Of a stretch of 31,583 nt of DNA, positions 1-31,583 are shown in pieces. Every line of letters begins with the position of its first letter. Positions within the stretch are counted from its first letter, which is position 1. The position numbers were made by a program, and so were the translations under genes. The notes under the pieces are model-generated. The model ran no database searches. It was not told the DNA's origin and saw nothing but the letters and a program-made list of their open reading frames with translations. This DNA comes from a virus (Duplodnaviria; Heunggongvirae; Uroviricota; Caudoviricetes): IMG/VR virus record IMGVR_UViG_2802429219_000016; one strand, 5' to 3'.

Positions 1-525
1 TTATACAGCTTTCTTTACATCGTTTTCTCTTACAGGGAAATTATGTTCTTTGCCTTCATACTGAGACAAAATCTCTCTCACTTTTTCCGGTGGTAATGCC
101 TGAAGAGTTTGCAGGGTTTTCTGTTGCTCCACAGTAATCCCTAATGCCTCTAATGCCTTATCTTTACTGACAATTGTAGGCATAAGTCCTTTAATCCCTG
201 CTACACGAATGATCTCCACAGCTGCGGCCTGCTCATCTGGTGTTAAGAAGCTCATTGCATAAATTAGCCTCTCATCAACTGTATGGGCGATTGATGTATG
301 CACTGGTTTATCAGAAAGTGAGGCTCCTTTAATGGCCCTGCGTGTTTCTTCTGGCAGACTGTTGATGTGATACTCATAAGCGACACCTTTCCCACCGTGA
401 CGCTGACGTTTTACCCAATCTTCCGCCACAGCTTTCCTGGTAATGTTAGTCGCCAACTTTGGTACACCAGGCATCCCTTCCAGCTCTTTCGCATTAAACC
501 ATTCTTTGATTTCAAAAGACATCAT
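1..525 (-). CDS. c: Mu c-like lysogeny repressor (174 aa)
   Basis: Leftward ORF divergent from ner-A-B. N-terminus ([26 protein letters not shown]) is paralogous to the N-terminus of the transposase at 940 ([26 protein letters not shown]), as in Mu c/MuA. Stop codon is at window position 1-3. Confidence 0.8.
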   Translation of the reverse strand: MMSFEIKEWFNAKELEGMPGVPKLATNITRKAVAEDWVKRQRHGGKGVAYEYHINSLPEETRRAIKGASLSDKPVHTSIAHTVDERLIYAMSFLTPDEQAAAVEIIRVAGIKGLMPTIVSKDKALEALGITVEQQKTLQTLQALPPEKVREILSQYEGKEHNFPVRENDVKKAV

Positions 526-710
526 TTAAAATCCTAGTGATTTCAATAGAGACAAAATAAATTCATATAAAAATCATGCCGTTATATGAAATCACGGCAA
601 ATCCTTTCAAATCACTGTTGATTTGGAAGTGATTCCACACTACATTGCACGATATGCCGTGAGCTACTTTATAGAGTAGCTCACGGGGGAATCTGAAAGG
701 ATTACATGAA
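526..710. promoter_or_regulatory. Divergent early promoter/operator region between c and ner
   Basis: AT-rich 185-bp gap between divergent genes. Four AGTGATTTCA-like motifs (538-546, 587-595 rc, 608-616 rc, 629-637) and a perfect 11-bp-arm inverted repeat at 658-685. ner RBS GAAAGGA at 695-701. Confidence 0.5.
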
Positions 711-932
711 ATGCATATGAATAAAAGAACTAACCGCCAAGATTGGCACAGAGCTGACATCGTTGCAGAGCTACGAAAACGCAATATGTCACTAGCTGAA
801 TTGGGAAGATCTAATCATCTTTCGTCTTCAACATTAAAAAATGCTTTGGATAAGAGATATCCGAAAGCGGAGAAAATCATTGCAGATGCACTGGGAATGA
901 CACCGCAAGATATTTGGCCGTCTCGATACTAG
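711..932 (+). CDS. ner: Ner-like DNA-binding early regulator (73 aa)
   Basis: Size and position match Mu ner; sequence [14 protein letters not shown]...LAELGR...STL.NAL...PK.E.IIA.ALG..P..IWPSRY fits the Ner/Nlp family. RBS 9 nt upstream. Confidence 0.85.
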
Positions 933-939
933 GTGCGCT

Positions 940-2928
940 ATGAAAGAATGGTATACAGCAAAAGAGTTGCTCGGTTTGGCAGGTTTACCAAAGCAAGCCA
1001 CTAACATTACACGTAAGGCACAAAGAGAAGGCTGGGAGTTCAGGCAGGTTGCAGGGACTAAAGGTGTATCATTTGAATTCAATATCAAATCATTCCCTGT
1101 CGCATTACGTGCTGAAATTCTGTTGCAACAAGGGAGAATTGAAACCAGTCAGGGGTATTTTGAAATCGCCCGCCCCACGCTGGAAGCCCACGATTACGAT
1201 CGCGGGACACTGTGGAGCAAATGGGATAACGCCAGCGATTCCCAGCGCAGACTTGCTGAAAAATGGTTGCCTGCGGTTCAGGCTGCAGACGAAATGCTGA
1301 ACCAGGGGATTTCAACGAAAACGGCTTTTGCGACCGTTGCAGGGCATTACCAGGTCAGCGCATCCACTTTGCGGGACAAGTATTACCAGGTACAGAAGTT
1401 TGCGAAGCCTGACTGGGCGGCTGCACTTGTTGATGGACGTGGTGCATCCCGTCGCAATGTTTACAAAAGTGAATTTGACGAGGATGCCTGGCAGTTTCTG
1501 ATTGCAGATTATCTGCGACCGGAAAAACCCGCCTTCCGCAAATGTTATGAGCGTCTGGAACTGGCAGCACGCGAGCATGGCTGGTGTATTCCCTCCCGCG
1601 CCACGGCCTTTCGCCGGATTCAGCAACTGGACGAGGCAATGGTTGTTGCCTGTCGTGAAGGTGAACATGCACTGATGCATCTGATACCGGCACAGCAGCG
1701 AACTGTGGAACACCTGGACGCCATGCAGTGGATCAACGGCGACGGTTATCTGCATAACGTCTTTGTACGCTGGTTTAACGGTGATGTGATCCGCCCGAAA
1801 ACATGGTTCTGGCAGGATGTGAAAACCCGAAAAATTTTGGGCTGGCGCTGCGATGTGAGCGAGAACATTGATTCAATTCGCCTCTCGTTCATGGATGTTG
1901 TGACTCGCTACGGTATCCCGGAGGATTTTCACATCACCATTGATAACACCCGTGGTGCAGCGAATAAATGGCTGACGGGGGGCGCGCCCAATCGTTACCG
2001 CTTTAAGGTGAAAGAGGACGATCCAAAGGGACTGTTTTTACTGATGGGCGCAAAAATGCACTGGACAAGCGTTGTTGCCGGTAAAGGCTGGGGCCAGGCA
2101 AAACCTGTTGAACGTGCTTTCGGTGTTGGTGGGCTTGAGGAATACGTTGATAAGCATCCGGCACTGGCTGGCGCATATACGGGGCCAAATCCGCAGGCAA
2201 AACCTGATAACTATGGCGACCGTGCTGTTGATGCAGAGCTGTTTCTGAAAACCCTTGCTGAAGGTGTTGCGATGTTCAATGCCAGAACAGGCCGTGAAAC
2301 AGAAATGTGCGGGGGCAAACTCTCGTTCGATGATGTTTTCGAGCGTGAATACGCCAGAACGATTGTGCGTAAGCCAACCGAAGAACAAAAACGGATGCTG
2401 TTACTGCCTGCTGAGGCGGTGAACGTTTCACGCAAAGGCGAGTTTACGCTAAAAGTTGGCGGCTCCCTAAAAGGCGCAAAAAACGTTTATTACAACATGG
2501 CGTTAATGAATGCCGGCGTGAAAAAAGTTGTGGTCAGGTTTGATCCGCAGCAGCTACACAGCACGGTTTATTGTTACACCCTGGACGGTCGATTTATCTG
2601 TGAAGCGGAATGTCTGGCACCTGTTGCATTTAATGATGCTGCGGCAGGCCGTGAATATCGCCGCCGCCAGAAACAACTGAAATCTGCAACTAAAGCAGCC
2701 ATTAAGGCGCAGAAACAAATGGACGCGCTGGAAGTTGCTGAACTGCTGCCGCAGATAGCCGAACCAGCAGCACCAGAATCAAGGGTTGTTGGTATTTTCC
2801 GGCCTGTGGGTAACACAGTACGGGTTAAATATCGCACCCCCGATGATAAATACGAACCCGCTCGTGATGAATATCTGAATCAGTCACTGGATATTCTGGA
2901 ACAGAAAAGACGTAAAAAAGCCATTTAA
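940..2928 (+). CDS. A: Mu-type DDE transposase A (662 aa)
   Basis: Length close to MuA (663 aa); N-terminal domain shared with the repressor; NGDGY and ITIDNTRG-type catalytic-core motifs; directly follows ner as in Mu. Confidence 0.9.
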
Positions 2929-2966
2929 TTAACGTTTAAACAAAATTTAATTACGAGGTTATTTAG

Positions 2967-3926
2967 ATGAATATTTCCGATATTCGCGCAGGACTGCGCA
3001 CGCTTGTAGACAATGGAGAAACCACGCTGACACGCATCGCCAGTGAATCAGGCGTGGCCCTGAGCACAGTCAGTGGTTTTGTGAATGATAAATATAACGG
3101 CAACATGGAATCAGTCGGGCGCACACTGGAACGCTGGCTGGAAAACTATCACCGCGCAGAAGAACTGCCGGAACCCCCGCGTTTTGTGGAAACTGCAACA
3201 GCCCGTCAAATCTGGACAAGTATGCGTTTTGCTAATCTGACCGGAACCATTGCTGTTATCTGTGGCAATCCAGGAGTGGGTAAAAGCGAAGCAGCCCGTG
3301 AATTTTGTCGCACTAATAATAATGTCTGGATGATCACCATCGCGCCATCCCGTGCCAGTACGCTGGAATGTCTGACTGAACTTGCCGAAGAGTTGGGAAT
3401 GAATAATGCACCATGTCGCAAAGGGCCGCTTTCCCGTAATCTGCGTCGCCGCCTGAAAGGGACGCAGGGACTGGTCATTGTTGACGAAGCTGATCACCTT
3501 GACACCGAAGCGCTGGAAGAGCTCCGTCTGTTACAGGAGTCCGCCTGTATTGGTCTGGTTCTGATGGGGAATCACCGTGTTTATTCAAATATGACCGCTA
3601 ATGGCGACAGAACAATTGAGTTTGCCCGTCTGTTTTCCCGTATTGCAAAGCGCACAGCAATTAATAAAACCAAAGAAGACGATGTAAACGCAATTGCGGA
3701 TGCCTGGCAGATTACCGGGAAAAATGAACGGGAATTATTACAGCAGATTGCACAAACGCCTGGTGCGCTCCGCATTATGAATCAAACGCTGCGCCTTGCT
3801 GTTATGAATGCCTTCGGTAAAGGCGAACGTGTTAATGAGGATTATCTGCGTGAGGCTTACAAAGAGTTAGACCAGGACGTTGATGTTTCGATGCTGCTGG
3901 GTGTGCAAGGGGATGCTGAATCATGA
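2967..3926 (+). CDS. B: Mu B-like transposition ATPase / target DNA activator (319 aa)
   Basis: Walker A GNPGVGKS and Walker B LVIVDEAD; N-terminal HTH-like region; position after A. Confidence 0.9.
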
Positions 3927-4150
3927 TGTCACGGAATATCAAAATGGCAACGGAAGTAAAGACCTGGTTACAGGAGCGCGGCAGCCACGTCAACGAATCC
4001 TGGCTGGGCGTGGCCCGCCCGGTGCTTGAAATAACCTGCCCACCACCGGAGCTTGTCAGGAATGCTGTCAGGATTATGGAGCATAAATCCGGGGTTGCCC
4101 GTTCAGTATGGACGGCCCGTCTTAATGGTTGTCAGATTATCTGGCGTTAA
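3923..4150 (+). CDS. Small early protein at the Mu kil position (75 aa); function not recognised
   Basis: ATG overlaps B stop (ATGA); synteny with Mu kil only, no recognised motif. Confidence 0.4.
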
Positions 4151-4182
4151 TAACGGCTTATTTATTTGTGAGGAATAACAAA

Positions 4183-4446
4183 ATGGCAAAAGTCATTATC
4201 GAAATCAAAAATGTGACATCTGAAGTTAAAGGGCAGCATTTACGCACCAATGTTAACGTGGACCACAGTGCAGAACTGGATGGTGATGAATACACGCTTG
4301 CTGGTGCGATAGCGTTACTGGTTCTGGAAAAAAGCCGGGATATCGTTCGCGAGTCAGCCCATGAGGCCATTGAAATACTGAAAAATGACGGCGTCATCAC
4401 GGGTGGCGATGTCACAGAAACGACAGTTGAAGGAACACGTCACTGA
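4183..4446 (+). CDS. Hypothetical early protein (87 aa)
   Basis: ATG 4183 preceded by GAGGAA RBS; in-frame track ORF from 4129 uses a TTG and is less likely. Acidic small protein, no recognised domain. Confidence 0.4.
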   Translation: MAKVIIEIKNVTSEVKGQHLRTNVNVDHSAELDGDEYTLAGAIALLVLEKSRDIVRESAHEAIEILKNDGVITGGDVTETTVEGTRH

Positions 4447-4460
4447 AAGGAACGCTGACA

Positions 4461-4814
4461 ATGAACACCAGAATCAGAAACGAAATTCAGGCATTAATTC
4501 GAATTAAAATGCGTAATAACAATCCAGGAGAATTACGCGAGTTTATTTTCACCCGCAAAGTTTATGAGCATGGTGAAACTACTTATCTGATTACATTTGA
4601 CCATTACAGCATTTGTGCGCGTTATTGTGGCGAAAACATCTCTAATGCCATCACGTTTGGCGGTGCGTTTAACGAGGATTTATGGGAATACGTCATGGAC
4701 CGCGAATACATCAGCGCGTCAGACCCGGACGCACGGGAGCAGTGGCAGAATATCTGGCGCGATTACCGGCGAATGGCGAAAGGCTGGGCGCAGGGAACGT
4801 ATTCTTTGCCCTGA
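4461..4814 (+). CDS. Hypothetical early protein (117 aa)
   Basis: ORF with AAAGGA RBS 9 nt upstream; no recognised domain. Confidence 0.45.
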   Translation: MNTRIRNEIQALIRIKMRNNNPGELREFIFTRKVYEHGETTYLITFDHYSICARYCGENISNAITFGGAFNEDLWEYVMDREYISASDPDAREQWQNIWRDYRRMAKGWAQGTYSLP

Positions 4815-4887
4815 AAGCGGTTCAGTTATCGCTGCGGCATATTCCGGCATCACTGCGCGCCCCCTGTTGTACTGAGTGGTGACCGGA

Positions 4888-5175
4888 ATGATGTGTAAGC
4901 GTAAACGCTGGTCACGCGAAGACCGGGAATTTATCGAAGCCAGTGTCGGGAAAATGACCGTCGAGGAAATGGCGAAAAAACTGAACGTTGCCACAACTGC
5001 CCTCCGGGCACACGCCAGAAGGCACGGAATATCGTTGTGTGCATATCGAATCAGTGAGCACGACAAATATTTGTGTCGTGAACTTTATAAAGAAGGGGTG
5101 GCTATTCATGTGATAGCCCAAAAGATGGAATTAAGCAATCGTGCTGTATCCAGCATTGTATACAGCGAATATTAA
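4888..5175 (+). CDS. Putative DNA-binding protein with two tandem HTH-like segments (95 aa)
   Basis: Segments MTVEEMAKKLNVATTALRAHARRHGI and VAIHVIAQKMELSNRAVSSIVY look like helix-turn-helix units; ATG 4888 chosen over track GTG 4876. Confidence 0.4.
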   Translation: MMCKRKRWSREDREFIEASVGKMTVEEMAKKLNVATTALRAHARRHGISLCAYRISEHDKYLCRELYKEGVAIHVIAQKMELSNRAVSSIVYSEY

Positions 5176-5195
5176 TTAACAGGAGCTTTATTTAT

Positions 5196-5720
5196 ATGGC
5201 TAAACCAGCAAAACGAATCAAGAACGCCGCAGCGGCTTATGTTCCACAATCCCGCGATGCCGTGGTATGTGATATCCGCCGGATTGGGGACCTGCAACGC
5301 GAAGCGGCACGACTTGAAACAGAAATGAATGACGCTATCGCTGAGATTACGGAGAAATATGCCTCACAGATTGCGCCCCTTAAAACCAGTATCGAAACCC
5401 TTTCAAAAGGCGTTCAGGGATGGTGTGAAGCGAACCGTGACGAACTGACGAACGGCGGCAAGGTGAAGACGGCAAACCTGGTAACCGGCGATGTGTCATG
5501 GCGTCAGCGCCCACCATCGGTAAGTATTCGCGGTGTGGATGCGGTGATGGAAACACTGGAGCGTCTTGGCCTGCAACGCTTTATTCGCACGAAACAGGAA
5601 ATCAACAAGGAAGCGATTTTACTGGAACCGAAAGCAGTTGCGGGTGTTGCCGGAATTACGGTTAAGTCTGGAATTGAAGATTTTTCTATTATTCCGTTTG
5701 AACAGGAAGCTGGTATTTAA
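5196..5720 (+). CDS. gam: Gam host-nuclease inhibitor / DNA-end binding protein (174 aa)
   Basis: Near full-length match to Mu Gam as I recall it (MAKPAKRIK.AAAAYVPQ.RDAV...IGDLQREA.RLETEMNDAIAEITEK...WCEANRDELTNGGKVKTANLVTGDVSWR); AGGAG RBS at 5181. Confidence 0.9.
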   Translation: MAKPAKRIKNAAAAYVPQSRDAVVCDIRRIGDLQREAARLETEMNDAIAEITEKYASQIAPLKTSIETLSKGVQGWCEANRDELTNGGKVKTANLVTGDVSWRQRPPSVSIRGVDAVMETLERLGLQRFIRTKQEINKEAILLEPKAVAGVAGITVKSGIEDFSIIPFEQEAGI

Positions 5721-5818
5721 CACCACTACGAATATTTAATTAATTCCCTTTCTTTTAATTATGGCGCGATGCGTCAGGGGATTGCTCGCGCCTGAAACAG
5801 ACTACTAAGGAATAAAAA

Positions 5819-6361
5819 ATGGTTGATGCAAAAGTTCTGAACGGTGTCAGCACATTATTACGCACTTACGGGCGTCTGACCTGTGGCGTTCTGGCTGAAA
5901 AAATGAAGATGCCACCTTCCTCAATGGTGTATTTCCTGCGTGATGCGGTTGATGCCGGAGTTCTCACTGAATGTAACGGATTTTATGACGTTCCGCGCCC
6001 TCGTCCGACGCCGCCGGTAAGACGAAACGCAACAACGGAACACCCCGATGTTGATGATGCTCAATGGTGCGCGTTCCGCCGCTCTTTGCCCTGGCTGGAA
6101 GGCAACGCCATTCCGGCACTGGCAAAAGAATTTGCGACAGGCGTACTGACCTGCGAGTCGGTTTACATTGTTGCTGAAGTGGATGACGAGATGTGCAAAC
6201 AGGGGATGCCCCGTTTTGTGATGGCTTATATCGATATCCGGCTGGGTCGTTTTATTTGTGGCTCCAGTGGCTGGAATATCACCGACCACGTCCTGCGCTA
6301 TCTCATTCTTGATTATTCACCGGTTCCGGCGGAAACACAGGAAATCAGCGAGCATGATTAA
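5819..6361 (+). CDS. Hypothetical protein, possible N-terminal winged-HTH (180 aa)
   Basis: ORF with AAGGA RBS; N-terminal LLRTYGRLTCGVLAEKMKMPPSSMVYFLRDAVDAGVL resembles a wHTH; rest unrecognised. Confidence 0.45.
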   Translation: MVDAKVLNGVSTLLRTYGRLTCGVLAEKMKMPPSSMVYFLRDAVDAGVLTECNGFYDVPRPRPTPPVRRNATTEHPDVDDAQWCAFRRSLPWLEGNAIPALAKEFATGVLTCESVYIVAEVDDEMCKQGMPRFVMAYIDIRLGRFICGSSGWNITDHVLRYLILDYSPVPAETQEISEHD

Positions 6362-6551
6362 GTCAATTGGCTTTGTCCTGCTGGTTGGCACTTGCGGGAA
6401 TGATGCCTGTGATGCCATTCCGGTAACAGAAAAAATCTGGCCCACAGAGCAGGCATGTATGCAGGTGATGGAGCGCATACAAAAACGTTATCCCAGTGAA
6501 ATCTTTTATTGCGAAGAGGTATTAAGAAATGAAAATACAGATGATTACTGA
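6354..6551 (+). CDS. Small Cys-containing protein with N-terminal hydrophobic signal/anchor (65 aa)
   Basis: MIKSIGFVLLVGTCGNDAC...: hydrophobic N-terminus followed by Cys (lipobox-like but non-canonical); four Cys in mature part; ATG overlaps upstream stop. Confidence 0.4.
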   Translation: MIKSIGFVLLVGTCGNDACDAIPVTEKIWPTEQACMQVMERIQKRYPSEIFYCEEVLRNENTDDY

Positions 6552-6864
6552 TGCTGATTTAATGGCTGCAACCTTAATTTCCAGTGGCATGTCAGAACAA
6601 AAGGTAAATGATTTCCTGGATAATGTCGTATACCAGCACTATGAGCAGGCCAGAGAAAATTTAATTTCAGAAAAGCGCACGATGATTGCTGAATCATTAA
6701 GCCCTGCATGGATTATCGAAGAGTTGCGGGGAATCATTGCCAGTCAGGATAAAGTGGCGGCAGTTGCCGCCCTCGATGTGCTACAGCGAATGAGTAAAGA
6801 GTTATTCAACACTGAATTAATTTTTAAATCCGGGGGACATAATGAGCCGCACATCCCTGATTAA
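6529..6864 (+). CDS. Hypothetical early protein (111 aa)
   Basis: ORF with GAGG RBS; no recognised domain. Confidence 0.45.
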   Translation: MKIQMITDADLMAATLISSGMSEQKVNDFLDNVVYQHYEQARENLISEKRTMIAESLSPAWIIEELRGIIASQDKVAAVAALDVLQRMSKELFNTELIFKSGGHNEPHIPD

Positions 6865-7393
6865 ATTAATTCATGTTGCCCGTCGGGAGTTGCAACTCGA
6901 CGATGACACTTACCGAGCTTTTCTGGTGCAGTGCACGGGCAAAACCAGTTGCCGCGAGCTGTCCGTTGCACAACTGGAACAGGTGCTCGATGCCATGAAA
7001 GAGCGCGGTTTTAAAAAGCAGAAAAAACATCCCCGCCGTCGCTTTAAGGGGCATGTCACACCACGCGAGAAGATTTACAAAATCTGGCAGCAGATGTTTC
7101 TTGACGGTTTCGTCTCCGATATCAGCGACGCTGCGCTGGACAAATACGTTGAGCGCCTGACAGCCAGACGTAATGGCGGACAGGGTGTTTCCACGCTGGC
7201 ATGGTGTCACGGGGAATCGTTGCAGATTGTGCTCGAAACGCTCAAACAGTGGCATATGCGCTGCATCCGGGAAGCCTTTGCCCGACATGGCGTGCCTTTA
7301 CCTGTGAGCGAAACCGGGCGGGAGCTGCGCGGCTATGATGCACTGACCAGTGCATATGCCCGCGCACGAAACAGCGGGAGAATTGCTGTATGA
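6842..7393 (+). CDS. gemA: GemA-like (Mu gp16 family) protein (183 aa)
   Basis: Position immediately upstream of and overlapping mor; size and basic composition consistent with Mu GemA/gp16 family (recollection). Confidence 0.65.
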   Translation: MSRTSLIKLIHVARRELQLDDDTYRAFLVQCTGKTSCRELSVAQLEQVLDAMKERGFKKQKKHPRRRFKGHVTPREKIYKIWQQMFLDGFVSDISDAALDKYVERLTARRNGGQGVSTLAWCHGESLQIVLETLKQWHMRCIREAFARHGVPLPVSETGRELRGYDALTSAYARARNSGRIAV

Positions 7394-17885: not shown

Positions 17886-18323
17886 ATGGGGTACATCACG
17901 CAGGAAGACCTGTTACGCGCGGACGGCAATCTTGTCTGGAACATGGCGATTAACCGGGAAACCAACGGGCTGGATGAAGACAAAATCCGTCAGGCCATCA
18001 GTGATGCCGAAGCGGAAATTGATTCGTTTCTGTCCCGCCGCTACCAGCTGCCGCTGGGGGTGACGGAAATCCCGCGCCCGCTGCAACGCGTGGCGGTATC
18101 GCTGGCGTTTTACTGGTTGTCAGAGCGTGACAATCAAATCACGGAGCTGATCCAGAAACGCTACGACGACGCCATTAAAACCCTGCGTGAGATGGCGAAC
18201 GGCACCCGTGACCTGGGCCTGCCGACGTATGCCACCCCGGCAGAAACCGACCACGGGAAAATCATTGTGGTGGGTGCCAATGCCCGGCTGTTCACCCGTA
18301 ACAACCTGAAAGGGGTGCTGTGA
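17886..18323 (+). CDS. Head-tail connector/completion protein, Mu gp36-like (145 aa)
   Basis: Position and size; family assignment from recollection. Confidence 0.55.
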   Translation: MGYITQEDLLRADGNLVWNMAINRETNGLDEDKIRQAISDAEAEIDSFLSRRYQLPLGVTEIPRPLQRVAVSLAFYWLSERDNQITELIQKRYDDAIKTLREMANGTRDLGLPTYATPAETDHGKIIVVGANARLFTRNNLKGVL

Positions 18324-18865
18324 TGGGAATTTCTGTACAGGTCAGCGGTGACCAGCGTCTGGAGGATATCCGCCGCGCCGTTGAAAAGCTGGCAGATGGT
18401 TCATTGCAGGCAGAGCTGCTGGAAAGCATTGGTGCGGTGGTGGAATCACAGACCCGCCGCCGCATCATCGATGAGAAAACCAGTCCGGGTGGCGAACGCT
18501 GGCCAGACTGGTCTGACGGGTACAAAAAGACCCGCCACGGCAACCAGAGTCTGCTGCGCGGTGAAGGCCATCTGCTGGAGAGTATCCAGTACATCGTGGA
18601 AAACCGTGTGGTGCGTATCGGTTCACCGCTGGATTATGCCCGCATCATGAATGACGGCTTTTCCGGCAGTGTGCCGGTCAGCGCCCACAAACGGCTTATC
18701 TCGCAGTGTTTCGGGCGGGCGCTGAAATATCCGGTCTGGCAGACCGTCGGCGCACATAACCGCATGATGAACATTCCGCAACGTGAATTTCTGGGGCTGT
18801 CTTCTGCCAATCAGCAGGAGCTGCAACAGGTTATCAGTCATTTCTGGAAGGAGGTTCTGCCATGA
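18323..18865 (+). CDS. Virion morphogenesis protein, Mu G-like (180 aa)
   Basis: Position in head-tail joining block; ATG 18323 (track uses GTG 18320). Confidence 0.55.
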   Translation: MGISVQVSGDQRLEDIRRAVEKLADGSLQAELLESIGAVVESQTRRRIIDEKTSPGGERWPDWSDGYKKTRHGNQSLLRGEGHLLESIQYIVENRVVRIGSPLDYARIMNDGFSGSVPVSAHKRLISQCFGRALKYPVWQTVGAHNRMMNIPQREFLGLSSANQQELQQVISHFWKEVLP

Positions 18866-19473: not shown

Positions 19474-19639
19474 GCCAGCGCGGGAAAACGTTCGTGTCCG
19501 TAAACCGGATGGCGCGCATTTATCCCCGCAAGGGGAACGTCTCGACGTCTGCGCTTACTGGCTGCGCCGTGAAGCCGAGGGAGATGTGGAAATAACCGCG
19601 CTTCCGAAAAATAGCAACAAAACCAGAGGGAAAAAATAA
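19454..19639 (+). CDS. Small protein, Mu gp38-like (61 aa)
   Basis: Short ORF between tail completion and sheath genes; ATG 19454 after GGGGTGA preferred over ATG 19439. Confidence 0.4.
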   Translation: MEQKLIKPARENVRVRKPDGAHLSPQGERLDVCAYWLRREAEGDVEITALPKNSNKTRGKK

Positions 19640-21114
19640 TGTCGCTGGGTTCAATTCCTGATGATATCCGCGTCCCGCTTGTCTGGATCGATATCGACAA
19701 TTCACAGGCGCTGGATGGTGCATCCGCGCAAAGCCGAAAAATTCTGGTCATGGGCCATGCGGTATCGTCCGGCAGCGCAGACGCCCTGTCACTGACCCGC
19801 ATCACCAGTGACAGCCAGGCAGACCAGCTTTATGGCAAAGGGTCGATGCTGGCTGAAATGCTTAAAATGCTGCGTCGTGCCAACACGTACACGGAAACCT
19901 GGGCAATGCCGGTTGCCGCGCCTGAAGGCGCTGCCGCAAAAGCCACGCTGACCGTGCTGGGGACAGCGACTGAAGCCGGAACGGTGGCATTGCTGATTAA
20001 CGGTGTGTCCGTTCAGGTGAGCGTGAGCGCCGGGGCTACGAAAGAAAACATTGCAAAAGCCATTGCTGATGCGGTGACGAAAAAGCCTGCCACGCAGGTG
20101 GCCGCTGCGGTGAAAGACGATGCTACAGATACCGTGGAGCTGACCGTGAACTGGCACGGCGTTACCGGCAACGGTGCCGACGTTCGCCTGAACTACTACA
20201 CCGGTGAAGCCTTCCCGGCAGGTGTGAAGGTGACTGCCACCGCGTTTACCGGCGGCACCGGGACACCGGAAATGGCGGATGCCGTTGCGGCCATCGGCCC
20301 GGAGTGGTTCACCGATATCATCGCCCCGTTCACCGACACGCAAAGCCTGAACACCCTGCGTGATGAACTGCTGAACCGCTGGGGGCCGCTCAAAATGATG
20401 GAGGCGCAGTTGTGGACGGCGTTTCGTGGCACGCACGGGGAAACCGGTACGTTTGGTGAAAACCGCAATGACTGGCTGATTAGCTGTATCGGCACCAACC
20501 TGTCACCGCACCCGGCGTGGATGTGGGCCGCGTCATACGGCGCAACGGCAGCGTATCACCTTGCCATTGACCCGGCGCGTCCGCTTCAGACGCTGGTCCT
20601 GACCGGCATTCTGCCGCCTGCGCGTAATGTTCGCTGGGATATGCCGGAACGTAACCTGCTGCTGCATGACGGCATTGCCACACACATGGTGGACGCCGGG
20701 GATAACGTCTGCATCGAGCGTGAAATCACCATGTACCGGGTTAATCAGTACGGTGATGCGGATGTGTCGTACCTTGATGTGCAGTCCCCCGCCACGCTGG
20801 GCCGTATCCGTTACATCATCAAAAATCGTTTCACGAACCGTTATCCGCGCCACAAGCTGGCAGACGATGACGTGCTGGACTCACTGGATGCCGGTCAGCC
20901 GGTGATGACGCCGAAGCTGTGCACCGCAGAGCTGCTGGATATCTGCCAGACCGAACTTATTCCTGCGGGCCTTGTGGAGAACTTCAGCGATTACAAGGAC
21001 ACGCTTCAGGTGACACGCGACAGCAGCGATAAAAACCGCCTGAACTTTATCTGCCACCCGAATCTGGTGAACCAGTTGCGTGTGCTGGCAGGCCTGATTC
21101 AGTTCAAACTTTAA
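19639..21114 (+). CDS. L: Contractile tail sheath protein, Mu L family (491 aa)
   Basis: Size about 490 aa, position before tube, typical sheath sequence character. Confidence 0.85.
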   Translation: MSLGSIPDDIRVPLVWIDIDNSQALDGASAQSRKILVMGHAVSSGSADALSLTRITSDSQADQLYGKGSMLAEMLKMLRRANTYTETWAMPVAAPEGAAAKATLTVLGTATEAGTVALLINGVSVQVSVSAGATKENIAKAIADAVTKKPATQVAAAVKDDATDTVELTVNWHGVTGNGADVRLNYYTGEAFPAGVKVTATAFTGGTGTPEMADAVAAIGPEWFTDIIAPFTDTQSLNTLRDELLNRWGPLKMMEAQLWTAFRGTHGETGTFGENRNDWLISCIGTNLSPHPAWMWAASYGATAAYHLAIDPARPLQTLVLTGILPPARNVRWDMPERNLLLHDGIATHMVDAGDNVCIEREITMYRVNQYGDADVSYLDVQSPATLGRIRYIIKNRFTNRYPRHKLADDDVLDSLDAGQPVMTPKLCTAELLDICQTELIPAGLVENFSDYKDTLQVTRDSSDKNRLNFICHPNLVNQLRVLAGLIQFKL

Positions 21115-26706: not shown

Positions 26707-27155
26707 CGACAGGAATCCGCTGGAATAACATGCTCTCACGGGGTGACATCACCGTCACCCATAACGGCCTCTCACTGGATGAGGGGCTGGTCACTCAGGT
26801 TCTTATCTGCCTTTTCACCGATGCCCGTGCTGATGACGATGATGTCATTCCTGACGGCTCTGGCGACCCGCGCGGCTGGCCGGGCGACACGTACAGCGAT
26901 TTTTCGTGGGGTTCCCGCCTGTGGCTGCTTGAGCGTGAAAAGCTGACGGAAGATGTCCGCCTGCGTGTGGAAGATTACGCGCGGCTGTCCATGCAACCGC
27001 TGCTGCGGGCCGGTTACGCCCGTAACGCCACCGTCACGGCCAGAATCATCGTCCCTGACCGTATTGCCTTTCAGGTGGTGTTAACCCGCCCGGACAAAAC
27101 CACGCTCACAATTGAAATCACCCGCCGATGGGAGGCCACCATTAATGCCGTATGA
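26703..27155 (+). CDS. Baseplate wedge protein (gpW/gp25-like, Mu gp46) (150 aa)
   Basis: Position and size. Confidence 0.7.
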   Translation: MTTGIRWNNMLSRGDITVTHNGLSLDEGLVTQVLICLFTDARADDDDVIPDGSGDPRGWPGDTYSDFSWGSRLWLLEREKLTEDVRLRVEDYARLSMQPLLRAGYARNATVTARIIVPDRIAFQVVLTRPDKTTLTIEITRRWEATINAV

Positions 27156-28221
27156 AATCCCCACGCTGGGCAAACTGATTGCCGACGGCGAAAAAGATAT
27201 TGCGTATGAACTCGGCCTGCAAAAGCTGCCGCCTGTCAGTGTTGAGCAGGCGCTGAACGTGTCATTCAGCAGTCAGGTCCGGGATTTATACGACCATCAG
27301 AGCTGGATTAAGGACCAGATAATCCCGTCCACCACGTCTGATGATGAAACCATTATCAAAACAGCAACGTATGAAGGGGTTATCCGCAAGCAGGCCACCT
27401 TTGCCAGCGGGCCGGTGACCTTCACCAGTCAGTCCCCCATTCCGGCAGAAACCCGGATGCAGTCCGACACGAATCAGGTGTATCAGGTACTCACATCCGG
27501 CGAGGTACAGGACGGCGAGGTCACCGTCATCGTGCAGGCTGAAGAAGCCGGTGTGGCGGGCAATCTTGCTGCCGGTGCCGTGCTCACTCTGTTGTCCCCG
27601 CTACCCGGAACGGGCAGCACCGGCGCGGTGACTGAAAGTGGCATCACCGGTGGCGCAGACATCGAATCCATCGCAGAGCTGCTGGACCGTCTGCTGTATG
27701 TGCGCCGCAATCCCCCGGTGGGCGGTGCACTGCATGATTACGTCATCTGGGCGCGTGAAGTGCCGGGTGTCAGCCGCGCGTGGGCATGGGATGCGTGGCA
27801 CGGCCCCGGCACGGTCGGGCTGGCATGGCTTTATGATGACCGTGAAGACATTATCCCCACACGGGACGACCTGAAGACAATGGAGCAGTATCTGTTCTGC
27901 CACAAACACCCGGCCACCGGCGTGATGGTGGGTAAACCGGGCGGCATCGAGGTCTGGCCGGTGCAGGTCAGGCTGAAGAAACTCGACCTGTCCATCCGCC
28001 TGACACCGGACAGCCAGGCGAACAGGAACGCCGTCAGGGCAAACCTGACCGCATTACAGAAAACGCTGGCCCCCGGTCAGATGCTGCCGGTGTCCTCGCT
28101 GCGCACAGCCATCGGTATGACGTCCGGTATCACGGATTACTTCCTCAACATCGGGGAAGACACCACCAGTGATGTGGATGAGCTTATCACCATCGGGGAG
28201 GTGACATGGCTCACAGCGTGA
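27145..28221 (+). CDS. Baseplate J-like protein (Mu gp47) (358 aa)
   Basis: ATG 27145 after GGGAGG RBS (track uses TTG 27112); size and position typical of gpJ-like wedge protein. Confidence 0.75.
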   Translation: MPYEIPTLGKLIADGEKDIAYELGLQKLPPVSVEQALNVSFSSQVRDLYDHQSWIKDQIIPSTTSDDETIIKTATYEGVIRKQATFASGPVTFTSQSPIPAETRMQSDTNQVYQVLTSGEVQDGEVTVIVQAEEAGVAGNLAAGAVLTLLSPLPGTGSTGAVTESGITGGADIESIAELLDRLLYVRRNPPVGGALHDYVIWAREVPGVSRAWAWDAWHGPGTVGLAWLYDDREDIIPTRDDLKTMEQYLFCHKHPATGVMVGKPGGIEVWPVQVRLKKLDLSIRLTPDSQANRNAVRANLTALQKTLAPGQMLPVSSLRTAIGMTSGITDYFLNIGEDTTSDVDELITIGEVTWLTA

Positions 28222-28790
28222 CGGAATGGCTGACCGCACTGCAACAGGTCATGCCACGGGGTAAGGCATGGCCGCGTGATAACGACGCGGATTTAAACCG
28301 TTTTTTAAGGGCGCTTGCAGAGCGTTTAACCCGCGTTGAATACGACGCCTCGCGTCTGCATGTGGAGATGCGACCGGAAACCACACTCCAGCTGCTGCCG
28401 GAGTGGGAGCAATATCTGGCGCTGCCGGAATGCGGAATTGCCGCCACCACAACGGAAGCCCGCCGCCGGGCCGTGGTGGAGAAATACCGCCGCAAAGGCG
28501 GGCTGGCAACCTGGCAGATTGAAGCCGCTGCGGCGGCGTTGGGATTCACTATTAAGGTGACGGCCGTTCTGCCGCATCACTGTCTGCGTGACTGCATGTA
28601 CCCGCTGCATCCGGCCCGGTATCGCTGGCTGCTGAAAGTAGAAGTCCCGGATAAAGATGCCGGACGGTTTACCTGTATTGATGACGTTATGACGCCATTA
28701 ATCAGCGAACGCACCCGCGAGCTGGAATGCCTGCTGAAGCATTACCGGCTGGCGGGCACGGAATATGAATATTATTACACCGGAGAATAA
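28206..28790 (+). CDS. Baseplate/tail protein (gpI-like, Mu gp48) (194 aa)
   Basis: Position between J-like protein and tail fiber. Confidence 0.65.
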   Translation: MAHSVTEWLTALQQVMPRGKAWPRDNDADLNRFLRALAERLTRVEYDASRLHVEMRPETTLQLLPEWEQYLALPECGIAATTTEARRRAVVEKYRRKGGLATWQIEAAAAALGFTIKVTAVLPHHCLRDCMYPLHPARYRWLLKVEVPDKDAGRFTCIDDVMTPLISERTRELECLLKHYRLAGTEYEYYYTGE

Positions 28791-28793
28791 TTT

Positions 28794-29852
28794 ATGTTTC
28801 ATGTGGATAATCCGACGGGTGTACCGGTAATGCCACCTGTCGCGGCTGAATTAAGCAAAACAACGCTTTATTTTACCGAAGGCGGGAACGGTATTCCGCC
28901 CACCTATCCGGGACCGGACTGGTTTAATATTATTCAGTCTGAACTGCTGGAAATACTCCGGCAGGCAAATATCAAACCGGATAAAAACACCACCGACCAG
29001 ATTATGACGGCGCTGAAAAAACTGTTTATTACGAACAGTGGTTCAGCCGGAGCTATTGCCGGATTAACCGGTCAGAATAATACGTTCCCGTATTTTACGG
29101 GCGAAGACACAATGGCATTAACGCCGCTCAGTGCTTTTGTGCGCAGTATTCTCGGCAAAGAGAGTGCAACAGATTTTGCAGATGCACTGAAAGTCATAAA
29201 ACAATCAGGCGGCACGATGACAGGAGAACTGAAAATCCGTGGTGTTAATGCGCTGAGGATTTTCAACGAAGCCTTTGGTCTGATTTTTCGTCGTTCGGAA
29301 GAGTGCCTGCACCTTATCCCTACCAGTGAAGGTCAGGGCGAGAATGGCGATATTGGTCCACTTCGACCGTTCACTATTAATCTGCGGACGGGTGAAATAT
29401 CCATGTCGCATAAAGTGTCTGTTGGCGGCGGTTCTCAGGTCAATGGTGCGCTGGGTATCGGCGTTCAGAACGCGCTGGGCGGAAACTCAATTGCTTTCGG
29501 GGATAACGATACCGGCCTGAAACAGAATGGTGATGGCCTGCTGGATGTTTATGCCAATGGTCAGCACGTATTCCGTTTTCAGAATGGCGCGTTACAAAGT
29601 AACCGGGCAGTGAATGTTTCAGGGCGGGTAACACCGTCAGACTACGGAAACTTTGATGCCCGCTATCAGACCAAAACAGGCGGTGTGCAGGATGTGCGTC
29701 TGGGCAGTGCCATTGGTATTGGGCGTGGCGGGAACGCACCATCAGGTCACCTTATCAGCGGTCTTGATGGTGGGGAAAGTATGGACTGGGCCAATGCCCG
29801 CCCGGTGCAGGTTCTGATTAATGGCGTCTGGCGGAATGTAGCGAGTTTGTAA
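28794..29852 (+). CDS. S: Tail fiber protein, Mu S-like (352 aa)
   Basis: N-terminus MFHVDNPTGVPVMPPVAAELSKTTLYFTEGGNGIPPTYPGPDWFN resembles the conserved N-terminal domain of Mu S / P2 H-type fibers; followed by a Tfa gene. Confidence 0.7.
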   Translation: MFHVDNPTGVPVMPPVAAELSKTTLYFTEGGNGIPPTYPGPDWFNIIQSELLEILRQANIKPDKNTTDQIMTALKKLFITNSGSAGAIAGLTGQNNTFPYFTGEDTMALTPLSAFVRSILGKESATDFADALKVIKQSGGTMTGELKIRGVNALRIFNEAFGLIFRRSEECLHLIPTSEGQGENGDIGPLRPFTINLRTGEISMSHKVSVGGGSQVNGALGIGVQNALGGNSIAFGDNDTGLKQNGDGLLDVYANGQHVFRFQNGALQSNRAVNVSGRVTPSDYGNFDARYQTKTGGVQDVRLGSAIGIGRGGNAPSGHLISGLDGGESMDWANARPVQVLINGVWRNVASL

Positions 29853-29854
29853 TC

Positions 29855-30403
29855 ATGATGCACTTAAAAAATCTTACGGCACAAAACCCTAAAACAATTG
29901 AGCAATACCAGCTGGCGCGACAGCATAAATTTTTATTGTGGCTGTTCTCCGATGATGGTCAGGAATGGCACGAAGCCCAGGAAAAATTTCAGCCAGACAC
30001 TCTGAAAGTTATTTATGTTGAAACTGGCGAGGTGGTCTGGGTCGGAAAAGACATCACCTCAATCTGCCCGGAAAATAAAAGCGTGATTGAGCTACCGGAT
30101 ATTACCGCCAATCGTCGCATTGAGGCGTCGGGTTACTGGTTCTACCGCAATGATGAATTTGTTTTTGACTACAAACTTAAAGCGGAAGACGAGCGTGATG
30201 CCCTGTTAAAACAGGTCAGCATCATGACCAGCGAATGGGAAAAAGACCTGCTGCTGGGATTAATCAGCGACGAAGACAAAGAAAAGCTGAAAGCCTGGCG
30301 TATATACGCGAAATCGCTGCAGGCGCTGGATTTCAGCACCATCACTGATAAAACCTCATATAACGCCATCAACTGGCCGGAGCGTCCCGATGCCGCAGCT
30401 TAA
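29855..30403 (+). CDS. U: Tail fiber assembly protein (Tfa/U family) (182 aa)
   Basis: Size, AT-rich composition and sequence character typical of Tfa chaperones; directly follows fiber gene. Confidence 0.75.
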   Translation: MMHLKNLTAQNPKTIEQYQLARQHKFLLWLFSDDGQEWHEAQEKFQPDTLKVIYVETGEVVWVGKDITSICPENKSVIELPDITANRRIEASGYWFYRNDEFVFDYKLKAEDERDALLKQVSIMTSEWEKDLLLGLISDEDKEKLKAWRIYAKSLQALDFSTITDKTSYNAINWPERPDAAA

Positions 30404-31583
30404 AGGTGTGATTAAAACGCCCACGGGAGAACCGCTGGGCGGCGCAACCATTACACTGACCTCCCTGCACAACCGTGCAGGGATTCTGAAAAGTGTTTTC
30501 AGCCATGTCACCACACAGAACGGGGAATATGACTTCCCCGTTCTGCCGGGTGTGTACAGCGTTCGCCTGACGCAAAGCACACAGCGCCTTTCAGAAATCG
30601 GTGTCATCCGCGTTTATGAAGATTCAGCGGACGGTTCGCTGAATGATTTTCTGGGTGCAACCGATATTGACCTGCGCCCGGAAGCCCTGAAGAAATTCGA
30701 GGAACTGGCGCAACAGGCGCAGCAAAGCGCAGAAAAAGCAGGAGAACACGCCACCGCTGCTGAACAGGCCCGTCAGGATACAGAAACGCTCGCTGGGGAA
30801 ATACAGCAGGATGCAGAAGAAATTGCGGGTAATGTACAGAAAGCTGAAGAACTGGCCTCTGAAACAAACCAGAATGCCGCCCGCGCAGAGCAGGCCGTCA
30901 AGGATGCCGACCTGATAGTCCAGAAGGCGGTCGATAAACTTGGTGAAGCTGCAACGCTGACCGGCGAGGCAAAAGCCAGCGCCGAAGCGGCAGCAAAAAG
31001 CGAGCAGAGCGCGAAACAGCACAGGGACGAGGCGCAACGGATAGTTGATGACCTGAAGGGAAGCAATGCTTCCACGACGCAAAAAGGTCTGGTGCAACTC
31101 TGTAGTGATACAGACAACGACAGCGAAGAACTGGCAGCCACACCAAAAGCCGTCAAAGCCGTCATGGACGAAACGAAAACAAAAGCGCCGCTGGACAGCC
31201 CGGCATTCACCGGCACGCCCACCACACCAACCCCACCGGACGATGCTGCCGGTCTGGAAACAGCGAACGCGGCATTTGTCCGCAAACTGCTCGCTGCACT
31301 GGTTGACTCGTCACCGGAAGCCCTGGACACGCTGAACGAGCTGGCAGCGGCGCTGGGCAATGACCCGGAGTTTGCGACAACAATCATGAACGCGCTGGCG
31401 GGTAAACAACCACTCAGTGACGTGTTAACCGCAATCAGTAATCTGGAAGAACGGGCAGATAACCTTCTGTGCTTTAATCAGGACGGGAATGCTTCACTGT
31501 CTCCGCTGTCAGAAAAAGCCCGGTCACTGCTGGCACAGGCCACAGTGGAAGCCATGCGTAATGAGCTTGAGCTGAAAAGCGCA
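30390..31583 (+). CDS. Side tail fiber protein, lambda Stf-like (5' part only, at least 398 aa; runs off the window)
   Basis: Not in the ORF track because no stop occurs before the window end. Hand translation from ATG 30390 is open to 31583. N-terminus resembles the prophage tail fibre N-terminal domain (VYEDS.DG.LNDFL); also KGLVQLCSDTDNDSEELAATPKAVKAVMDETKTKAPLDSPAFTGTPT and DSSPEALDTLNELAAALGNDPEFATTIMNALAGKQP as in lambda Stf / P2 H fibers. Confidence 0.8.
   Translation, partial: MPQLKGVIKTPTGEPLGGATITLTSLHNRAGILKSVFSHVTTQNGEYDFPVLPGVYSVRLTQSTQRLSEIGVIRVYEDSADGSLNDFLGATDIDLRPEALKKFEELAQQAQQSAEKAGEHATAAEQARQDTETLAGEIQQDAEEIAGNVQKAEELASETNQNAARAEQAVKDADLIVQKAVDKLGEAATLTGEAKASAEAAAKSEQSAKQHRDEAQRIVDDLKGSNASTTQKGLVQLCSDTDNDSEELAATPKAVKAVMDETKTKAPLDSPAFTGTPTTPTPPDDAAGLETANAAFVRKLLAALVDSSPEALDTLNELAAALGNDPEFATTIMNALAGKQPLSDVLTAISNLEERADNLLCFNQDGNASLSPLSEKARSLLAQATVEAMRNELELKSA

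Follow-up and report, generated by a model that had tools for sequence, protein, structure and literature searches.

The final three genes of a Mu-like transposable prophage carried on the IMG/VR virus record IMGVR_UViG_2802429219_000016 (Caudoviricetes; the whole stretch of 31,583 nucleotides is referred to here as the window) encode a complete Mu S-like tail fiber (fiber 1), a Mu U-like tail fiber assembly chaperone (Tfa), and the first part of a lambda Stf-like fiber (fiber 2), which together form the end of the late operon. Our analysis indicates that this prophage probably represents an Escherichia coli lineage of Mu-like phages in which two co-directional modules, each consisting of a fiber and its chaperone, replace the invertible G segment of Mu. 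This reading is carried by the identities of the genes, by the boundaries of the mosaic segments, by the completeness of fiber 2 and the presence of its chaperone in related prophages, and by the absence of an invertase and of gix sites from the sequences that were searched. The initial annotation of the window had proposed two different tandem fiber systems, with a Mu S/U-like pair ahead of a Stf-like fiber, and the gene identities confirm this arrangement.

Two tail fiber modules in tandem

The product of the first fiber gene matches phrog_6859 ("tail fiber protein") from end to end (E = 3.6e-135) and aligns with Mu S in both halves by BLASTP (36% identity over amino acids 1 to 144, E = 1e-23; 33% over amino acids 130 to 351), in agreement with the complete S-like fiber of 352 amino acids that had been predicted for the open reading frame (ORF) at 28794-29852. 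Its N terminus is also recovered by phmmer against the entries for "Tail fiber protein S" in the PDB (5yvq/9ki1; E = 8e-32), where amino acids 1 to 81 align to amino acids 1 to 81. All of the features that define a Mu S/U-type pair are present, including an S-type anchor, a gp48 homolog directly upstream, and a PF02413 gene immediately after the fiber. Cryo-electron microscopy of Mu has revealed six S trimers with their N termini anchored on the docking loop of gp48, residues 133 to 155 (PMC11915804), and the gp48-like protein of the window is the presumed docking partner of fiber 1. The chaperone that had been recognized at 29855-30403 is borne out by its PF02413 domain and by its matches to Mu U' (42% identity), Mu U (35%), and PDB entry 5yvq_B (E = 1e-34).

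The second fiber gene begins with an ATG at 30390, and the stop codon of tfa ends at 30403, which yields the 14-nucleotide overlap described in the initial annotation; a GGAG Shine-Dalgarno sequence lies 7 nucleotides before the ATG. The frame is uninterrupted for 398 codons up to the final base of the window, and this ORF had been missing from the ORF list, as was pointed out at the time, because it runs past the window end. Over these 398 amino acids it shares 98% identity with the N-terminal part of a 777-amino-acid protein of E. coli Z0117EC0133, a strain that, like ETEC1732, carries a complete relative of this prophage (at 2.30-2.31 Mb in Z0117EC0133). The two fibers are separate genes rather than one gene split by a sequencing error, since a complete tfa stands between them.

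The Stf-type N-terminal domain and collar motif attributed to fiber 2 were recovered by several comparisons. The PF08400 (phage_tail_N) domain spans amino acids 4 to 130 (E = 5e-27), the alignment to lambda orf-401/Stf has 38% identity over amino acids 3 to 114 and 68% over the 41-amino-acid collar motif, and the PF03406 repeat is listed in Table 1. By phmmer, the collar domain matches the collar spike gp40 of the Vibrio myophage XM1 (7kjk; E = 1.6e-10) and StfN of Ur-lambda (9e7m; E = 1.2e-9), and the alignment to gp40 places amino acids 3 to 183 of fiber 2 on amino acids 4 to 184, thereby covering the N-terminal domain and the coiled coil. The domain order is the same in all three proteins, and fiber 2 resembles Ur-lambda Stf further in that no structural gene follows it in the late operon. 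Unlike Ur-lambda, however, the window encodes a contractile tail, and its collar belongs to a distinct subtype; the genes upstream of fiber 2 are those for sheath, tube, and gp43 to gp48 instead of the J and lom of a noncontractile lambdoid tail, which our survey encountered in its 9 lambdoid loci alone. The similarity to XM1 gp40 includes a contractile tail with a simple baseplate as well as the homologous N-terminal domain and coiled coil, although the C-terminal part of gp40 is tailspike-like.

Table 1. Coordinates of the fiber region and of the segments recognized within it
Feature	Coordinates	Strand	Supporting matches or remarks
gp48-like baseplate wedge protein (YmfQ family)	28206..28790	+	PF10076 Phage_Mu_Gp48, E 6e-32; 31% identical to Mu gp48
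Fiber 1, complete Mu S-like tail fiber, 352 aa	28794..29852	+	phrog_6859, Mu S, PDB matches
Fiber 1 N-terminal anchor (aa 1-122)	28794..29159	+	Within the block 27000-29159, 97% nt identical to L002/L003/L008
Exchanged host-range cassette (fiber 1 aa ~123-352 and Tfa aa 1-~123)	29160..30222	+	No blastn match to L002/L003
Tfa, Mu U/U'-like tail fiber assembly chaperone, 182 aa	29855..30403	+	PF02413 Caudo_TAP, E 4e-25
Fiber 2, Stf-like, first 398 codons	30390..31583	+	Cut by contig end; start overlaps tfa stop
Fiber 2 collar/attachment domain (aa 1-~110)	30390..30719	+	PF08400; phmmer matches to XM1 gp40 and Ur-lambda StfN
Ala/Gln/Glu-rich region, presumed coiled coil (aa ~111-225)	30720..31064	+	Aligns with XM1 gp40 coiled coil to aa 183
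Shaft segment common to side fibers of unrelated prophages	30870..31583	+	94-96% nt to Rac-SA53 tail3, L011
Phage_fiber_2 "collar" repeat (aa 228-267)	31071..31190	+	PF03406, E 1.7e-16; 68% to lambda Stf motif

Exchanged segments within both fibers

The anchor of fiber 1 (amino acids 1 to 122) is 91 to 99% identical in amino acid sequence across the Mu-type loci, which indicates that it was inherited along with the prophage backbone. The DNA flanking the remainder of the gene pair closely resembles that of Mu-like E. coli prophages (97% nucleotide identity for 27000-29159 and 93% for 30223-31583), and in the intervening block at 29160-30222 no blastn match was found to Mu-like relatives with a fiber of the 269-amino-acid type (L002/L003). 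The stretch at 29213-30378 is 96.8% identical to the genes L54/L55 of phage phiP27 and 95 to 96% identical to the corresponding DNA of L011, a hybrid prophage, and reaches into the conserved C-terminal part of Tfa. These comparisons identify 29160-30222 as a swappable segment of the phiP27 L54/L55 type that comprises the receptor-binding part of fiber 1 and the fiber-specific N-terminal part of Tfa. The exchange of a fiber tip together with the head of its chaperone, with joints just past the fiber anchor and inside tfa, marks it as a classical host-range cassette.

The initial annotation had suggested that the AT-rich Tfa gene was a recently acquired host-range cassette. A cassette with 96.8% identity to phiP27 does exist, but it is not the Tfa gene alone, and the exchanged block is the one delimited above. 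The claim that tfa is richer in AT than its flanks also stands, with 46.6% GC compared to 54 to 60% for gp43 to gp48, but the low-GC tract is wider than had been claimed and starts at the beginning of fiber 1 (47.1% over the first 140 codons and 50.4% over the whole gene); GC at third codon positions (GC3) is 0.48 to 0.56 in all three genes of the fiber region compared to 0.63 to 0.71 in the baseplate genes. GC content by itself does not delimit the cassette. Four Mu-type prophages (L009, L010, L050, and L052) carry fibers of the same family with 77 to 95% amino acid identity; within the lineage, cassette types are thus in circulation. The fiber 1/tfa junction (29835-29913) is the sole stretch of the fiber region with DNA similarity to Mu, having 84.5% identity to the junction of S' with U' and 75% to that of S with U, and is consistent with a conserved recombination joint.

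Fiber 2 is mosaic as well. When it is compared to the fibers of lambdoid prophages, P2-type prophages, and Rac-SA53, amino acids 1 to 160 have 20 to 55% identity (65 to 70% in one 20-amino-acid window) and amino acids 161 to 398 have 85 to 100%. In comparisons with L047 and L009, which have the Mu backbone, amino acids 1 to ~110 are 95 to 100% identical and the remainder is 0 to 45% identical. The PF08400 domains of the survey cluster by genomic context into a Mu-type group of 20 loci (18 with context demonstrated), a phiP27/P2-type group of 20 loci with two subtypes, and a lambdoid J-lom group of 9 loci. Within the Mu-type cluster the collar domain of fiber 2 is 89 to 100% identical, with 30 to 40% identity to the other subtypes, and the pairing of this collar with the backbone is constant in all 20 loci (again, with Mu-type context demonstrated in 18). 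These patterns indicate that this collar subtype is restricted to the Mu-like lineage of the window and has been kept with the Mu-type backbone while the shaft was exchanged.

Related prophages and the DNA beyond the contig end

The fiber 2 ORF leaves the window because the contig ends at 31583; exact-protein look-ups showed that this last base is the 3' end of contig PTSA01000025.1 (GCA_002965785.1; 60,059 bp). Look-ups of fiber 1 and Tfa returned the same contig alone, with no DNA past 31583, and a scan of genome contigs for an extension of the sequence recovered only two Brucella matches to the shaft motif, which are irrelevant. Sequences matching the fiber region occur in up to nine copies in one E. 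coli genome, and the repetition of the shaft sequence among prophages explains an assembly break without any disruption of the gene. The shared shaft segment at 30870-31583 is the likely cause of the break, and the truncation of fiber 2, like that of any other feature running past this point, is an artifact of assembly rather than biology.

The comparison set combined five Mu-type prophages annotated in E. coli genomes with twelve to thirteen IMG/VR contigs that share their backbone; gp47 and gp48 of these loci are 92 to 100% identical in amino acid sequence to those of the window. All of the Mu-type relatives with downstream DNA continue from fiber 2 to a DUF4376 chaperone gene, com, mom, and host DNA, and in the RefSeq annotation of the five prophages com-mom directly follows the chaperone. 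In most relatives fiber 2 is not a short remnant interrupted soon after the point where the window ends but a complete gene of 468 to 1040 codons that ends in a variable tip, with its own adjacent chaperone in 14 Mu-type loci. This second chaperone gene, located -3 to +73 nucleotides after fiber 2, is of the DUF4376 type and not a PF02413 Tfa. In work on Alteromonas and Campylobacter, DUF4376 is described as a tail fiber chaperone domain, and its use here differs from lambda, where Stf is paired with a PF02413 Tfa. One Mu-type relative, L010 (E. coli E300082, NZ_CM128602.1; 7001-9057), has a gp48 with a repeat-rich C-terminal extension of about 130 amino acids and an extra ORF of 352 amino acids between gp48 and fiber 1 that has no match to the window proteins; its fiber 2 is reduced to a remnant.

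A further suggestion of the initial annotation, that an invertible G/P-type segment might lie just beyond the window, is not supported by the order of genes through com-mom or by searches for the components of such a system. A tblastn search with Mu Gin gave no matches in 56 related loci, which were covered for up to 10 kb. Sites resembling the 26-bp gix crossover sequence were absent from the window when up to 3 mismatches were allowed, and a search of 63 sequences with up to 5 substitutions found none beyond the two sites of Mu itself, both of which were recovered as a positive control. No oppositely oriented alternative fiber end or Tfa was found either, as every match to a fiber or chaperone, whether in the window or in a relative, is on the + strand. 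A perfect inverted repeat of 15 nucleotides (28691-28705/29814-29828; GACGCCATTAATCAG/CTGATTAATGGCGTC) brackets fiber 1, with one arm in the backbone gp48 gene and the other in the phiP27-type cassette, but we judged it to be coincidental because each arm is found elsewhere without the other and such a repeat arises in 19 of 300 shuffles. Counts of internal promoters and terminators between the fiber modules within the window were not above those in shuffled sequences.

The comparison to Mu itself is therefore one of a shared framework with a different ending. The genes gp44 to gp48 are colinear with those of the window and 31 to 41% identical, the S-type anchor and the C-terminal domain of fiber 1 have 33 to 36% identity, Tfa has 35 to 42%, and com-mom closes the genomes of the relatives. 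In contrast to Mu, gin, gix, and an inverted S'/U' were not found in the window lineage; the second fiber is co-directional and has its own N-terminal domain, and the second chaperone of the relatives contains DUF4376.

The closest counterparts of the module as a whole are found outside the Mu-like phages. The order of fiber, Tfa, PF08400 fiber, and DUF4376 protein also occurs in phiP27 (described in 2002; genes L54 to L57), in Rac-SA53 (tail1 to tail4), and in L011, where the four genes accompany a P2 gpI-like protein. In phiP27 and Rac-SA53 the genes have the same orientation and likewise stand at the end of a contractile-tail cluster; phiP27 L54/L55 are 96.8% identical in nucleotide sequence to the C-terminal part of fiber 1 and Tfa, and Rac-SA53 tail3 is 94% identical to the shaft of fiber 2. 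The differences are that the backbone of the window is that of a transposable Mu-like phage, that the anchor of fiber 1 is of the Mu S type, that the collar is of another subtype (36 to 39% amino acid identity), and that tfa and fiber 2 are separated by a gap of 23 nucleotides in phiP27 and Rac-SA53 but overlap by 14 nucleotides in the window. Between phiP27 (L064) and Rac-SA53 (L065), the four fiber-module genes are common, with a collar that is 96% identical, and no shared head, neck, sheath, tube, or baseplate protein was found by BLASTP; the whole fiber module appears to be mobile between unrelated contractile-tail phages. In prophages with the P2 gene order the modules are split, with a Stf-like gene after gpD about 6 kb from an H/G-like pair. 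Four IMG/VR loci (L025, L027, L036, and L044) have an H-like fiber and Tfa, then genes for sheath, tube, tape measure, and gpD, and only after these a PF08400 fiber of 1045 amino acids, so that the second module closes the tail operon, away from the first fiber.

Because the same four genes are present in phiP27, Rac-SA53, and P2-order prophages, we regard the dual-fiber module as being of a known kind, though uncharacterized, and the comparisons make this prophage one more member of that kind rather than an inversion system. The Mu-type collar sequence was detected in 46 of 5,426 complete E. coli genomes. No deposited phage genome had a protein with at least 60% amino acid identity to it, the best match being that of Rac-SA53 at 40.5%. 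RefSeq labels the fiber 2 gene generically as a "prophage tail fiber N-terminal domain-containing protein," and our literature searches found no paper on this Mu-like dual-fiber lineage.

From left to right, the window encodes ORFs of the size of MuA and MuB with the early region, followed by head, sheath, tube, and tape-measure genes and then by the gp43- to gp48-like baseplate genes that precede the fibers. The early region on the MuA/MuB side has 87 to 89% nucleotide identity to Mu, D108, and SfMu, and megablast similarity to these phages is confined to positions 1 to 7341 (the repressor side, MuA, MuB, gam, and others); no near match to the late region at 7342-31583 was found among 50,697 phage records. 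The prophage is, on the basis of these matches, a hybrid that combines a Mu-type early region with the late region of a different transposable phage. The gp47 of the window is 57% identical in amino acid sequence to that of Klebsiella phage Kp4866-3, the closest deposited phage by baseplate genes, compared to 38% for Mu. In Kp4866-3 (L066, OK490420.1; 3406-6803), gp47 and gp48 are also followed by two tandem fibers, which are encoded at 3406-4161 and 5046-6803 and separated by an ORF resembling lambda Tfa, but both have S-type N termini (51% and 42% identity to the anchor of fiber 1), and there is no PF08400 fiber. This phage illustrates another route to two fibers, in which both might compete for the same gp48 sites.

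Proposed docking and display of the two fibers

In the arrangement that we consider probable, the first module is a Mu S/U-type pair whose N-terminal ~120 amino acids correspond to the anchor that binds the gp48 docking loop in Mu, and the receptor-binding C-terminal part of its fiber, together with the matching N-terminal part of Tfa, is a swappable cassette of the phiP27 L54/L55 type. The second module is a Stf-type fiber built from a lineage-specific collar, a presumed coiled coil, and a shaft drawn from the common pool of prophage side fibers. Given its S-type anchor and the gp48 homolog upstream, fiber 1 should occupy the gp48 sites, and since the two anchors are different and noncompeting and the genes form one translationally coupled operon, we infer that both fibers are carried on the same virion. 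Two fibers on one particle would permit the simultaneous and constitutive recognition of two receptors, in contrast to Mu, in which S and S' alternate by G-segment inversion and have one anchor in common. Co-assembly, receptor function, and the docking site of fiber 2 are all deduced here from sequence comparisons; dual receptor specificity, which the initial annotation had raised, is plausible.

Several observations weigh against this reading. The C-terminal half of fiber 2 and its chaperone lie past the contig end at 31583, so that intactness in this particular prophage is not read directly; fiber 2 has shrunk to a remnant of 156 codons in L010 and of 55 codons in L056, and RefSeq flags the L003 homolog as a pseudogene; and the collar is 96% identical in phiP27 and Rac-SA53, which have no other virion protein in common that is detectable by BLASTP. 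This last finding weakens a strict role of the collar as a backbone-specific adaptor. A near-identical collar on unrelated virions indicates that the domain is portable and not strictly tied to one tail; it either binds some feature that is conserved in structure or forms a ring largely by self-assembly.

Two solved structures bear on where fiber 2 may dock. In Ur-lambda, twelve copies of StfN form a collar around the gpV/gpM junction (PMC12617516), and in the contractile phage XM1 six gp40 trimers sit at the neck on the head-completion and tail-terminator rings (PMC10457771); in both phages the domain is a proven attachment collar of the virion. It is possible, though less likely than not, that fiber 2 attaches to the adaptor and tail-terminator rings at the neck and would be a collar fiber rather than a baseplate fiber. 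XM1 gp40 is the sole solved homolog of the N-terminal domain from a contractile tail, and tube-fold rings such as those (gpV/gpM) that the domain encircles in Ur-lambda would, on a sheathed tail, be accessible at the neck alone; in the window phage the sheath covers the site equivalent to the lambda junction. The S-type fiber is moreover expected to take up all six docking loops of gp48. The neck location has been shown for XM1 only, however, and the neck proteins of the window have no detected sequence similarity to those of XM1, the adaptor-like protein being a match to Mu gpJ. In the window, the adaptor-like protein is encoded at 17886-18323, the terminator-like protein at 18320-18865, and the sheath at 19639-21114. 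The position of the fiber 2 gene at the end of the baseplate and fiber cluster also argues against a neck fiber, as does the occurrence of a near-identical collar domain with unrelated necks.

It is nearly as likely, by our estimate, that fiber 2 is instead a second peripheral fiber of the baseplate, attached to the wedge or to the first sheath ring so that the tail tip bears two crowns. This placement would fit a gene that directly follows those for the baseplate and fiber 1, as well as the constancy of the collar subtype on this backbone (20 of 20 loci of the Mu-type domain cluster), and dual fibers of the baseplate, as in other dual-fiber myophages, are common among other phages (PMC11990801; PMC11821841). 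A PF08400-type domain on a contractile baseplate is without structural precedent, however, the gene lies after gpD and about 6 kb from the H/G-like pair in P2-order prophages, and the same collar domain occurs with unrelated baseplates. Fiber 2 is unlikely to dock on the C-terminal domain of fiber 1 or on Tfa, as there is no fixed pairing of collar subtype with cassette type: the Mu-type collar is found with at least 3 different types of fiber 1 C-terminal part and Tfa, and the phiP27-type cassette is found with both collar subtypes.

The remnants listed above, the cut at the contig end, and the 85 to 100% identity of fiber 2 to lambdoid Stf shafts from amino acid ~161 onward would also suit a dead passenger, a truncated or disrupted stf fragment left by recombination with a lambdoid prophage in a phage that uses the S/U-like fiber alone. 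We consider this improbable, as 398 codons are open and match an intact 777-amino-acid homolog at 98% identity, 14 Mu-type loci have a full-length fiber 2 with an adjoining chaperone, the start of the gene overlaps tfa and has a Shine-Dalgarno sequence, and the shaft sequence, repeated among prophages at up to 9 sites in a single genome, accounts for the assembly break. It is more improbable by far that the tandem fibers border a G/P-type invertible segment whose gin/pin invertase, gix sites, and inverted fiber ends lie just past 31583: Mu, D108, and SfMu, with their closely similar early regions, all use such a segment, and the downstream DNA of the source genome lies beyond the contig end, but neither a Gin homolog nor a gix site emerged from the searches described above, the only perfect inverted repeat joins arms from different lineages, the Mu-type relatives all proceed to DUF4376, com, and mom, and fiber 2 has an N-terminal domain of its own, whereas Mu S' has none and borrows the constant part of S.

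The probable replacement of the G segment by two co-directional modules has implications beyond this prophage. A branch of the E. coli transposable phages would have gained wider host recognition without DNA inversion by means of an independently anchored second fiber, and this raises the structural question of where a lambda-type collar domain docks on a sheathed tail, at the neck or at the baseplate. The domain boundaries (fiber 1 amino acids 1 to 122, fiber 2 amino acids 1 to ~110, and the shaft junction near amino acid 160) may be usable for the retargeting of Mu-like particles or tailocins, and for genome scanning the practical lesson is that this cut ORF reflects an assembly break in repeated fiber-shaft sequence rather than biology. 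A more far-reaching interpretation, which we offer tentatively and regard as less likely than not, is that fiber 2 is a neck-mounted collar fiber like XM1 gp40, that the collar is a portable clamp on unrelated tails, and that dual display replaced inversion of the G segment. If this is true, the two ends of the contractile tail would each bear receptor-binding proteins, and a clamp of ~110 amino acids would bolt Stf-type fibers onto Mu-like, phiP27-like, Rac-SA53-like, P2-order, and lambdoid tails. Constitutive display of two fibers would then supplant the stochastic bet-hedging that Mu achieves by inversion of the G segment.

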